This document shows positions 43,054 to 44,121 of a stretch of 50,509 nt of DNA, piece by piece. The notes beneath the pieces are model-generated. The model worked only from the letters and a program-made list of their open reading frames with translations. It was not told the origin of the DNA and searched no databases. The stretch lies in the sequence record PV340548.1; one strand, 5' to 3'. Each line of letters begins with the position of its first letter. Position 1 is the first letter of the stretch. Source of the DNA: Escherichia phage PhiR11_1_star. A program made the position numbers and the translations under genes.

Positions 43054-43068
43054 GTGCCAGAAGCGGAC
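43054..43068. repeat. 15-bp direct repeat GTGCCAGAAGCGGAC, copy 1
   Basis: Exact 15-mer also at 44107-44121; the two copies bracket the AT-rich gene 43117-43932. Confidence 0.8.
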
Positions 43069-43116
43069 TTCATTAGATTCTTTGTTTTTTGTGTTAATAT
43101 ACTTACAATCCCATCA

Positions 43117-43932
43117 TCAACTAACAACCCAATCATCAGATAATATATCACTGATATTGAAAATATAGGTATGGTTATTTTTACCATCTGAAATGACGAT
43201 TTTTTTTAAGTTGAATCTTTCTGATATGATATGCGTTGCAAATTGTGGGATTATTAAAAACAAAGCCTCTACCTTACTGATTAATTCAATGTTGACTTTA
43301 GGTCTGAAGTTTGCATCATGAACCACTTTGTGCCTAATGTAAAATGCTTCCTCTATGAGGGCTCTCCAGTCTGGAAATATATTTTCTATCGATAAACCTT
43401 GGGAAATTTGGCCACTCAGACCGCAAGGAGATATATTAGTTGTACATATGTAGTTTAAAAAACTCTCACCCCACATGCCATTATATGCTTCTTCAAGGTC
43501 GTTTAAGTTTTGAAAGTTAAAGCTTTTACTCAATAACTCTGATAGATTTATCTCAGTGTTTATATTGATAGATGTTTCTGTTCTCATTTTAGATAGTAGT
43601 GTTGTAATTCTAGATTCATCAACTGAATGCACGAAAACAAAAACGTCTCTAAAATATGTTTCCCAGCAACTGATTAGAAATACAAAATATTGTCGATATG
43701 CTGTTTTATAAATATCTATTTTCTTATCTTTCGTTGAAATAAGTGAATGCATAAGTCGACAATTTTCTGCAAAATTTAGTAGGAAAGACATTGAGAAGTC
43801 TTCTATAGCTCCTCTTGATTCGCGAAGAGATAGCAATTCATCAATAATTTTTTTATTGATTTTCCTAATCTTTTTCAATTGCATGCCTCGTTTTTGCTTA
43901 AGTAAAGTTGATTTTGGAGTTTCGTCAATCAT
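43117..43932 (-). CDS. hypothetical AT-rich cargo protein, possible HEPN/Abi-like
   Basis: 271-aa ORF, markedly AT-rich relative to flanking phage DNA; contains an R-x4-H stretch (IRHKVVHD); no other recognised motif. Confidence 0.55.
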   Translation of the reverse strand: MIDETPKSTLLKQKRGMQLKKIRKINKKIIDELLSLRESRGAIEDFSMSFLLNFAENCRLMHSLISTKDKKIDIYKTAYRQYFVFLISCWETYFRDVFVFVHSVDESRITTLLSKMRTETSININTEINLSELLSKSFNFQNLNDLEEAYNGMWGESFLNYICTTNISPCGLSGQISQGLSIENIFPDWRALIEEAFYIRHKVVHDANFRPKVNIELISKVEALFLIIPQFATHIISERFNLKKIVISDGKNNHTYIFNISDILSDDWVVS

Positions 43933-44106
43933 GTTATCTTATTAGATTTAAAGATAAAGTCACTTTTTGCATAAGCTTTGCGACAAAGATAGCTTTAATG
44001 AAAGGCCTTATAGAGCTACTTGGCCATAAAAATTTTTACGATGAATTCGAATTCAGCGTCCGCTCCTCGCTTAAAGCTGTCCTTGGGCCTAACCTACGAT
44101 AGCTTC

Positions 44107-44121
44107 GTGCCAGAAGCGGAC
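44107..44121. repeat. 15-bp direct repeat GTGCCAGAAGCGGAC, copy 2
   Basis: Identical to 43054-43068. Confidence 0.8.

Follow-up and report, generated by a model that had tools for sequence, protein, structure and literature searches.

A HEPN gene between recurrent H1 and H2 hairpins in a lambdoid prophage: evidence for a candidate cassette-exchange system at phage accessory-gene hotspots

How does a single AT-rich gene come to lie between two identical 15-bp sequences in the accessory region of a lambdoid phage? The question is raised by Escherichia phage PhiR11_1_star (PV340548.1), whose 50,509 nucleotides are called the window here. The original prediction, made from the sequence alone, described positions 43054 to 44121 as an insertion between exact direct repeats that possibly carried a HEPN- or Abi-like exclusion gene. 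We consider it probable that 43045 to 44081 is a HEPN cassette lying between sites of two recurrent kinds, the hairpins H2 and H1, with exchange taking place inside the 15-mer and likely depending on a small recombinase supplied in trans. We propose, more tentatively, that H1, H2, and this recombinase form an uncharacterized integron-like cassette-exchange system across Proteobacteria that loads and shuffles defense genes in the lambda b region and the P2 Z/fun region. In such a system the 15-mer would act as the crossover core, and the HEPN gene would be one cassette among others.

The window phage is lambdoid and in prophage order, with an accessory b region at its right end. Its genes run through J, stf, the tail fiber genes, a 100-amino-acid (aa) gene, and the cassettes to the prophage end at bio/ybhB, so that variable, AT-rich, nonessential genes occupy a fixed place after the tail fiber genes, as in hotspots of the lambda b or P2 Z/fun type. 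The record of PhiR11_1 (PV340547.1) is 100% identical to the window (window coordinate equals record coordinate minus 41). At 49,016 bp, that record is about 1.5 kb shorter and ends at window position 48975, the extra sequence being 48976 to 50509.

The 15-mer, GTGCCAGAAGCGGAC, is present in two exact copies on the plus strand, at 43054 to 43068 and 44107 to 44121, and the window holds no third copy with up to 2 mismatches allowed. Shuffles gave an expectation of 0.17 matches, with at least two matches in 1 of 100. Within 3 kb it is the sole exact direct repeat of at least 15 nucleotides (nt) in the window, apart from repeats internal to the side tail fiber gene (39396 to 39794, about 189 bp, tandem-like, in an Ala/Ser/Thr-rich collar region), to which every further exact 15-mer direct repeat of the window belongs. 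The guanine-plus-cytosine (GC) content is 0.32 for the 1,038 bp between the copies (43069 to 44106) and 0.50 for the whole window, and 300-nt windows go down to 0.28. The bracketed DNA has one long open reading frame (ORF), on the minus strand at 43117 to 43932 (271 aa; GC content, 0.315). Because the repeat copies, the low GC content, and the single ORF were all verified, the observation behind the original prediction is confirmed. No Rfam family matched 42500 to 44600 at an E value of ≤1, and consensus scans for promoters and terminators gave no signal above shuffles.

The 15-mer belongs to a larger motif. H2 is a 24-nt palindrome, GTCCGCT-ttGTGCCAGA-AGCGGAC, usually followed by rTT (consensus drawn from 259 unique instances), and the 15-mer is its loop plus its 3' arm. 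H1 has the same stem and another loop, GTCCGCT-ccTCGCTCAy-AGCGGAC; at 6 of 10 positions this loop agrees with the reverse complement of that of H2. The stems are 7 to 10 bp and the conserved loops 8 to 10 nt, there is no tag, and the loop is as strictly conserved as the stem across bacterial classes. The exact 15-mer was found in at least 120 IMG/VR loci; among the matches listed, CCGCT-NN precedes it in 88 of 120, and the flanks of these CCGCT-NN-GTGCCAGAAGCGGAC loci are otherwise unrelated. A chance origin was rejected for most of the IMG/VR matches, given the full hairpin in those 88; a GC-rich locus (L095) is a genuine chance match. Resemblances to the 530 loop of 16S rRNA (GTGCCAGCAGCCGCGG), the sfx core of the R64 shufflon (GTGCCAA), and a tmRNA segment were not used as evidence.

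H1 and H2 follow an order rule. H2 is followed by H1 in 64 cases, at a median of 1,466 bp, and H1 by H2 in 39 cases, about 21 of them at 38 to 51 nt. Cassettes are bracketed as H2-cargo-H1, and stacked cassettes are separated by a fixed composite of H1, about 18 nt, and H2. The window reads H2-HEPN-H1·H2-374 aa plus FRG/PDC-S15 plus IS2-H1, with the spacing H2 (43045)-1013-H1 (44058)-40-H2 (44098), and when unrelated loci were used to build a synthetic H1·H2 consensus, it aligned to window positions 44058 to 44132. Since both the order rule and this alignment fit the window, the two 15-mers are best read as H2 sites that open consecutive cassettes. Bracketing by 15-mers, as first described, was thus right about the two copies and wrong about the right boundary, which is H1 (44058 to 44081); the second 15-mer opens the next cassette. 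The features are as follows.

42908 to 43068, plus strand: conserved lambdoid b-region element of about 160 bp, the last 24 nt of which are the left H2
43045 to 43068, plus strand: left H2 hairpin, opening the HEPN cassette; GGCTGCT-ATGTGCCAGA-AGCGGAC, with a degenerate 5' arm; contains the 15-mer at 43054 to 43068
43117 to 43932, minus strand: HEPN (RiboL-PSP type) gene, maximal ORF of 271 aa
44058 to 44081, plus strand: H1 hairpin, closing the HEPN cassette; GTCCGCT-CCTCGCTTAA-AGCTGTC, with a degenerate 3' arm
44098 to 44121, plus strand: right H2 hairpin, opening the next cassette, 40 nt from the H1 start; contains the 15-mer at 44107 to 44121
44122 to 44217, plus strand: semiconserved H2 tail, attactaag...gtgggacaagtca, then a second, degenerate H2-like remnant with a tail of its own at 44161 to 44217, ...GGCTAACAACC...ACGGGGAACAGGTCA
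44409 to 45533, minus strand: gene for a 374-aa protein, first gene of the second cassette
45603 to 46973, minus strand: gene for an FRG-domain protein matching PDC-S15, a candidate defense gene of PADLOC; second gene of the second cassette (PF08867, E = 4e-22; PDC-S15, E = 8e-99)
47004 to 48332, minus strand: IS2 (InsC/InsD), about 30 nt upstream of the FRG gene start
48575 to 48598, plus strand: partial terminal H1, closing the second cassette; TTCGCTCATAACAGAC

Breakpoints were mapped in pairs of loci that have one flank in common and differ in the other, with the hairpin numbered as positions 1 to 24. The 22 H2 pairs with only the upstream flank in common diverge at positions 25 to 29, and the 11 with only the downstream flank in common diverge at positions -1 to 9. 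The segment common to both sets is positions 10 to 24, which is the 15-mer; H1 breakpoints behave equivalently. Because homology between loci breaks off on one side or the other of the 15-mer, this mapping places exchange inside it, at a recurrent site and not in a single event. The suggestion that the gene was acquired by recombination at a short target fares well insofar as a foreign, AT-rich, one-gene cassette is joined to the backbone at the 15-mer; it has to be revised in that the 15-mer is part of a recurrent H2 hairpin and not the scar or target duplication of a one-off insertion.

Both outer borders of the window's cassette region can be compared with other genomes. The element of about 160 bp on the left is present in 273 E. 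coli genomes, lambda lysogens included, and in most of them homology to the window runs from 42908 to 43067 or 43068, the 15-mer's final base. Lambda has this element between ea47 and ea31. On the right, lambda homology resumes at window position 48584, inside the loop of the terminal H1. In E. coli ECONIH1 (L004, yagU-ykgJ-ecpE), two fragments outside the prophage, next to yagU and ykgJ, are homologous to the 3' end of the gene for the 100-aa membrane protein (10674 to 10805) and to the first 65 nt of the 160-bp element (12345 to 12409). An older lambdoid prophage probably left them behind.

A semiconserved tail of about 42 nt, gttgctaacaNcaNtctg...acggggagcaggtca, often follows H2. Similar tails occur in L079, L104, L044, L090, L026, and L016, and L079 matches window positions 44162 to 44217 at 85.7%. 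L079 (1955 to 2060) has H2, the tail, 11 nt, and H1, with no cargo, and this arrangement may be an empty cassette slot.

The same punctuation is found in other phages. In P2, H2 (15335 to 15358) is followed by fun(Z), a T5 exclusion gene, and by H1 (17432 to 17455) just before the pF activator site. In lambda, an H2 with a 1-nt deletion ends at 24349 and is followed by ea31-ea59 and H1 (27322 to 27345). Because ea59 matches PtuA (Septu, E = 5e-184) and PDC-M01A, and ea31 (HNH) matches PDC-M01B, these classical nonessential b-region genes (NC_001416, 24509 to 26973; L267) look like a Septu-type defense pair. An annotated misc_recomb feature at lambda 24389^24390 (L267, 3890-3891) lies 40 nt to the right of H2 and may be a deletion endpoint. 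The P2-like phage 899 carries two cassettes in tandem, H2-ORF-H1·H2-ORF-H1, between its tail fiber assembly and sheath genes.

We counted 49 distinct cassettes of one or two genes each, in random orientation (24 minus, 23 plus), with a GC content of 0.40 inside against 0.47 outside. Arrays reach 4 or more cassettes. Many cargos are defense genes: they include retron/DRT-type reverse transcriptases, AAA_13, PIN_8, a Pycsar-type TIR, Mrr, GmrSD, DarT, patatin, HEPN_MAE_28990, and an independent RiboL-PSP HEPN, with PD-T7-1 and HEC-08 elsewhere; some cargos are nondefense genes. In our sample of 5,426 complete E. coli genomes, the composite junction is present in 1,653, at 1 to 5 copies each and always between genes.

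Exact H2 is also found in many genera of Enterobacterales and in Alphaproteobacteria (Pseudolabrys, Xanthobacteraceae, Hyphomicrobiales), where it pairs with hairpins of the same stem and another loop in long arrays with a strict period of about 45 nt. These alphaproteobacterial arrays, together with composites in [Erwinia] mediterraneensis, indicate that the element is not restricted to phages and has a side that recalls repetitive extragenic palindromic (REP) sequences and bacterial interspersed mosaic elements (BIMEs). In alphaproteobacterial metagenome-assembled genomes (among L140 to L259; L175, L240, L168, and L197), dense H1a·H2 and sometimes H1a·H1a·H2 units with a period of 45 to 46 nt separate segments of 0.5 to 2.5 kb. 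Their H2 is identical to that of enterobacteria and phages, and the partner loops are ttGGGTCAnn or ttaCCCCCgaa.

Folded as single-stranded DNA, the intact composite forms one long bulged hairpin with an 18-nt terminal loop, in which the outer stem joins the 5' arm of H1 to the 3' arm of H2 and the inner stem joins the other two arms. The composite of phage 899 has a z score of -4.2, and one alphaproteobacterial composite folds as two separate hairpins (z = -5.0). A nucleic acid structure is therefore plausible but not proven, the stems showing almost no compensatory change.

What might catalyze exchange at such sites? A 200-aa tyrosine recombinase (for example, WP_023147793.1) consisting of the catalytic domain only (PF00589, E = 2e-17) was found by sampling two E. 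coli composite loci; its NCBIfam matches, to XerA, XerC, and tyrosine-type DNA invertases, are all below threshold. The 4 full-length enterobacterial copies have the same layout: variable sequence, H1 (...TCGCTCATAAGGGAC), a 39-nt leader, the gene, ...GGGCTGCaacaGCAGCCCTGTGCCAGAAGCGGAC, and variable sequence again, the 3' side reading ...CCCTGTGCCAGAAGCGGAC before the variable part. A truncated remnant has the same upstream side. The gene is present in 912 of the E. coli genomes, and the DNA that they have in common begins in the H1 loop and runs to the final base of H2. In one array (L270) it stands among cassettes: H2-c1-H1·H2-c2(PD-T7-1)-H1-recombinase-H2-c3-H1. The family is very large and widespread in Gammaproteobacteria, with members 77 to 95% identical in Enterobacterales, Idiomarina, Pseudoalteromonas, and Cycloclasticus. 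About 19 nt after the recombinase stop, Idiomarina and a marine island have an H2-type 15-mer with 1 or 2 substitutions, and an H2-like sequence also follows a homolog of 46 to 60% identity in a high-GC genome. Because the H2 15-mer comes just after the stop in every full-length copy examined, and H1 lies upstream in the enterobacterial copies, this protein is the most likely candidate for the enzyme of the H1/H2 sites. The window does not encode it, so any action there would be in trans.

Other sequences accompany the recombinase gene. The 39-nt leader between H1 and the start codon (L270, 6508 to 6546; L271; L242; L079) has a hairpin of its own, actcaaatctcc...ggagatttgagt, and after the stop a GC-rich hairpin, GGGCTGC-aaca-GCAGCCC, takes the place of the H2 5' arm; both could be regulatory or binding elements. 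In a marine island of the Cycloclasticus type (L273 to L276), the recombinase lies between arsenic and copper resistance modules in an element with a primase gene, which suggests that the system also operates in integrative and conjugative or island elements with metal resistance cargo.

Of the 5,426 E. coli genomes, 28 contain the HEPN cassette; the right flank is the same in all of them, and the HEPN gene is always accompanied by the 374-aa gene. The shared block, 42908 to 47003 plus 48333 to 48717 (4.5 kb), is 99.4 to 99.7% identical in three prophage backbones: a lambda-like one at bio/ybhB, an e14/Pin-like one at yagU, and a CPS-53-like remnant. IS2 is probably a recent insertion, since E. 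coli FDAARGOS_1249, ECONIH1, and EC50 carry the otherwise identical block without it; it may affect expression of the cassette. The empty site with a single 15-mer that the original prediction led us to look for did not turn up: no place in the E. coli genomes matched both halves of a synthetic query of left flank, 15-mer, and right flank, the exact 24-mer of the empty junction is not in IMG/VR, and in a sensitive-mode search the right flank appeared only with the cassette. The closest diverged HEPN genes (80 to 89% DNA identity, in four unrelated contexts) have only window positions 43094 to 43918, approximately, in common; the 15-mer is likewise missing near more distant homologs, and neither the 15-mer nor H1 or H2 lies near one homolog of the 374-aa protein. 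Judged from these alignments, the repeats do not belong to the HEPN gene.

As for the second cassette, the 374-aa protein has no Pfam, PHROG, or NCBIfam match; a D...EVK stretch (DYRIILKDRRQIFVEVKNF) is reminiscent of PD-(D/E)xK nucleases. The FRG protein, with which it shares the cassette, also matches phrog_4962.

The cargo of the first cassette is a HEPN-fold protein with an Rx4H motif. Homologs and the GenBank annotation of the identical phage place the probable start at M17 (43884) or L19 (43878), for a protein of 253 to 255 aa. It shows the four-helix up-and-down fold and matches PF18735 (RiboL-PSP-HEPN) over profile positions 7 to 174 of 191 (E = 7.6e-6), with 26.4 bits against a gathering score of 28.4. 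The same family is matched by 21 of 24 diverse homologs, several of them above the gathering score (35.9 to 39.6 bits), and most of about 70 homologs of 253 to 255 aa carry the PF18735 call. The R-x4-H stretch that had been offered as a possible active site is RHKVVH (R200...H205), and it has gained in credibility: R200, H201, and H205 are invariant in 24 homologs at 37 to 87% identity, and R80-Q81-Y82, E91-T92, R95-D96, and N139-F140-Q141 are further conserved. The assignment to HEPN or Abi families stands for the HEPN fold and motif and fails for Abi, none of whose families matches; nor did any PADLOC-DB v2 family (E ≤ 1), PHROG (E ≤ 0.1), or NCBIfam family. We predict that the protein is a metal-independent RNase acting through R200 and H205, and it is most likely a prophage-encoded anti-phage effector of the abortive infection type. 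In Enterobacter, homologs occupy an accessory slot of a P2 prophage. At the C terminus, residues 240 to 271, approximately (window positions 43117 to 43215), form a conserved tail, PYIFxxxDILSxDW.

Taken together, these data would fit the following course of events. In the b-region hotspot of a lambdoid prophage, positions 43045 to 44081 would form a single accessory-gene cassette, and the window would hold two cassettes, the HEPN gene and then the 374-aa and FRG/PDC-S15 genes, with IS2 arriving later. Such cassettes would be swapped between unrelated prophage backbones and chromosomal arrays by a crossover inside the 15-mer or the equivalent part of H1. The 200-aa tyrosine recombinase, acting in trans, would be the most likely catalyst. 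The overall logic would be that of an integron, with different sites and a different enzyme.

A simpler history would be a one-off insertion of 1,038 bp at a unique 15-bp target, the 15-mers being a target-site duplication or a single microhomology scar. Exact repeats around an AT-rich segment are what it predicts, and the single copy in lambda-type phages has the window's left flank upstream and is followed by ATTAC, as is the right copy here. Yet the 15-mer recurs as the motif of a whole family, in hundreds of unrelated loci, the segment also holds an H1, spaced canonically at 40 nt, the E. coli genomes and IMG/VR yielded no empty site, and the 15-mer does not accompany the HEPN gene elsewhere; the recurrent H2-cargo-H1 pattern contradicts a single event, which we regard as very improbable. 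An insertion sequence or other transposon with target duplication was likewise rejected, the HEPN gene being the only long ORF and the 15-mer recurrent: the segment encodes no transposase, and inspection of its two ends by eye showed no terminal inverted repeats, no repeat search having been made. More serious, though still unlikely in our judgment, is the view that the hairpins are REP/BIME-like palindromes with another role (insulation, mRNA stabilization, or protein binding), that swaps arise by short-homology recombination (Red/RecT type or RecA) over conserved stretches of 15 to 65 nt, and that the recombinase is just cargo. The dense intergenic arrays of Alphaproteobacteria suit this view, as do the folding of the composite, which forms a single long bulged hairpin in the manner of an inverted REP doublet, and the partial complementarity of the two loops. 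It would not, however, lead us to expect breakpoints within 15 nt in dozens of independent pairs, tighter than homology-driven exchange predicts, or loops as conserved as stems across bacterial classes, and the borders of the recombinase module coincide exactly with these crossover points. The hairpins are also scarcer in E. coli than REPs, at 1 to 5 per genome, and fit neither of the catalogued GTAG and CGTC REP families; no RAYT gene was seen among the loci whose genes were examined, though no systematic search was made.

Several observations count against cassette exchange by the small recombinase, and some of them favor the palindrome view directly. The hairpins separate ordinary genes in [Erwinia] mediterraneensis (L170) and in Alphaproteobacteria, compensatory variation in the stems is almost nil, and the recombinase adjoins only a few of about 240 hairpin loci examined, with H1 weak or absent upstream of its nonenterobacterial copies. 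No recombination was observed, whether as circular intermediates or as an empty site joining the two flanks of the window cassette; neither 15-mer nor hairpins lie near the closest diverged HEPN genes. In the three prophage types the HEPN gene is always linked to the neighboring cassette within the 42908 to 48717 block, whose breakpoints lie away from the hairpins, and this linkage at near identity points to recent spread of the 4.5-kb segment by larger-scale recombination and not by single-cassette movement. Because the two hairpins next to the HEPN cargo are partly degenerate, with a weak 5' arm in the left H2 and a weak 3' arm in H1, and the fold of the window composite is unremarkable (z = -1.3), the HEPN cassette may no longer be mobile. 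The protein, for its part, falls 2 bits under the Pfam gathering score and is in no defense database. It has an alternative of its own, as a signal-controlled effector or counterdefense factor tied to Thoeris-type (TIR) signaling, with the beta-rich C-terminal tail as a nucleotide-binding module. Homologs do stand directly beside ThsB-TIR/ThsA-Macro or TIR genes, in Proteus and a metagenomic contig, and the tail gives weak matches to the C-terminal half of the Tad2-like Thoeris anti-defense domain PF11195 in 5 of 24 family members (P0007, P0009, P0016, P0028, and P0030). These matches cover half of the profile and stay below threshold (best, 23 bits against a gathering score of 25), no TIR gene lies beside the HEPN gene in the window or the 28 E. 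coli genomes, and adjacency to Thoeris may simply reflect a defense island; we find this role improbable. Cassette exchange at H1 and H2 remains the reading that we prefer.

Prophage hotspots have been mined as anti-phage reservoirs, while the route by which cargo enters and leaves them is unexplained. If H1/H2 and the recombinase are a working pair, they would supply a concrete mechanism of defense gene turnover, would link lambda, P2, e14-type prophages, and chromosomal arrays, and would explain the same cargo in unrelated phages. H2...H1 is also a simple sequence rule for finding defense candidates, such as the RiboL-PSP HEPN, the 374-aa protein, and many unannotated cargos, and so compact a recombinase with its site could serve genome engineering. 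Even if the hairpins are portable homology only, the punctuation rule and the 15-nt crossover window would help phage genome annotation. A 2004 paper by Nilsson et al. (Mol Biol Evol 21:1) on P2-like phages, whose title argues for site-specific recombination at P2 hotspots and which may have noted these repeats, lies outside the literature searched, in which we found no description of the H1/H2 sites or the small recombinase.

Among known systems, the closest to the window protein are HEPN conflict effectors (HEPN-MNT, Csm6/Csx1, AbiV, the HEPN module of AbiA, and PF18735). Compared with these, it is about 255 aa long, has extra N- and C-terminal elements, lacks an MNT, CARF, or RiboL-PSP partner domain, and belongs to a family without a PADLOC entry. 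The hairpins resemble REP/BIME and REPIN-RAYT systems in being short extragenic palindromes in fixed-spacing doublets, between convergent, unrelated, or ordinary genes, in both Alpha- and Gammaproteobacteria, with an enzyme gene flanked by its own repeats. Unlike REPs, they have no GTAG or CGTC tag, have a conserved loop of 8 to 10 nt instead of 2 to 5 nt, number 1 to 5 per E. coli genome, and delimit swappable cargo, and they come with a PF00589 tyrosine recombinase in place of an HUH/Y1 RAYT transposase.

With integrons, the H1/H2 loci share arrays of one- or two-gene cassettes with diverse and often defensive cargo, as in sedentary chromosomal integrons. Each of the 49 distinct cassettes ends in a structured site that would serve recombination, an imperfect palindrome of about 65 nt able to fold into one bulged hairpin; crossover is in a short core, a tyrosine recombinase gene lies beside a site, and many arrays are without the enzyme, as in clusters of attC sites lacking integron integrases (CALINs). 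Differences are equally plain. H1 and H2 have only a loose AAy...rTT frame around each hairpin in place of the R''/R' cores RYYYAAC/GTTRRRY, and the enzyme is a 200-aa catalytic domain, whereas IntI has about 320 aa and an IntI-specific insertion. Its gene lies inside a junction, not beside an attI with a Pc promoter; the cargo is randomly oriented, and the platforms are prophage hotspots as well as chromosomes. Since it has neither those cores nor IntI, the H1/H2 system is not an integron. The P2 Z/fun and lambda b hotspots have been defined by their flanking core genes, with no mention of hairpins, border repeats, or a recombinase (Rousset et al. 2022, PMC9122126; NAR 2026, PMC13586616). They coincide with the loci described here in their positions after the tail fiber genes and in their AT-rich anti-phage cargo.

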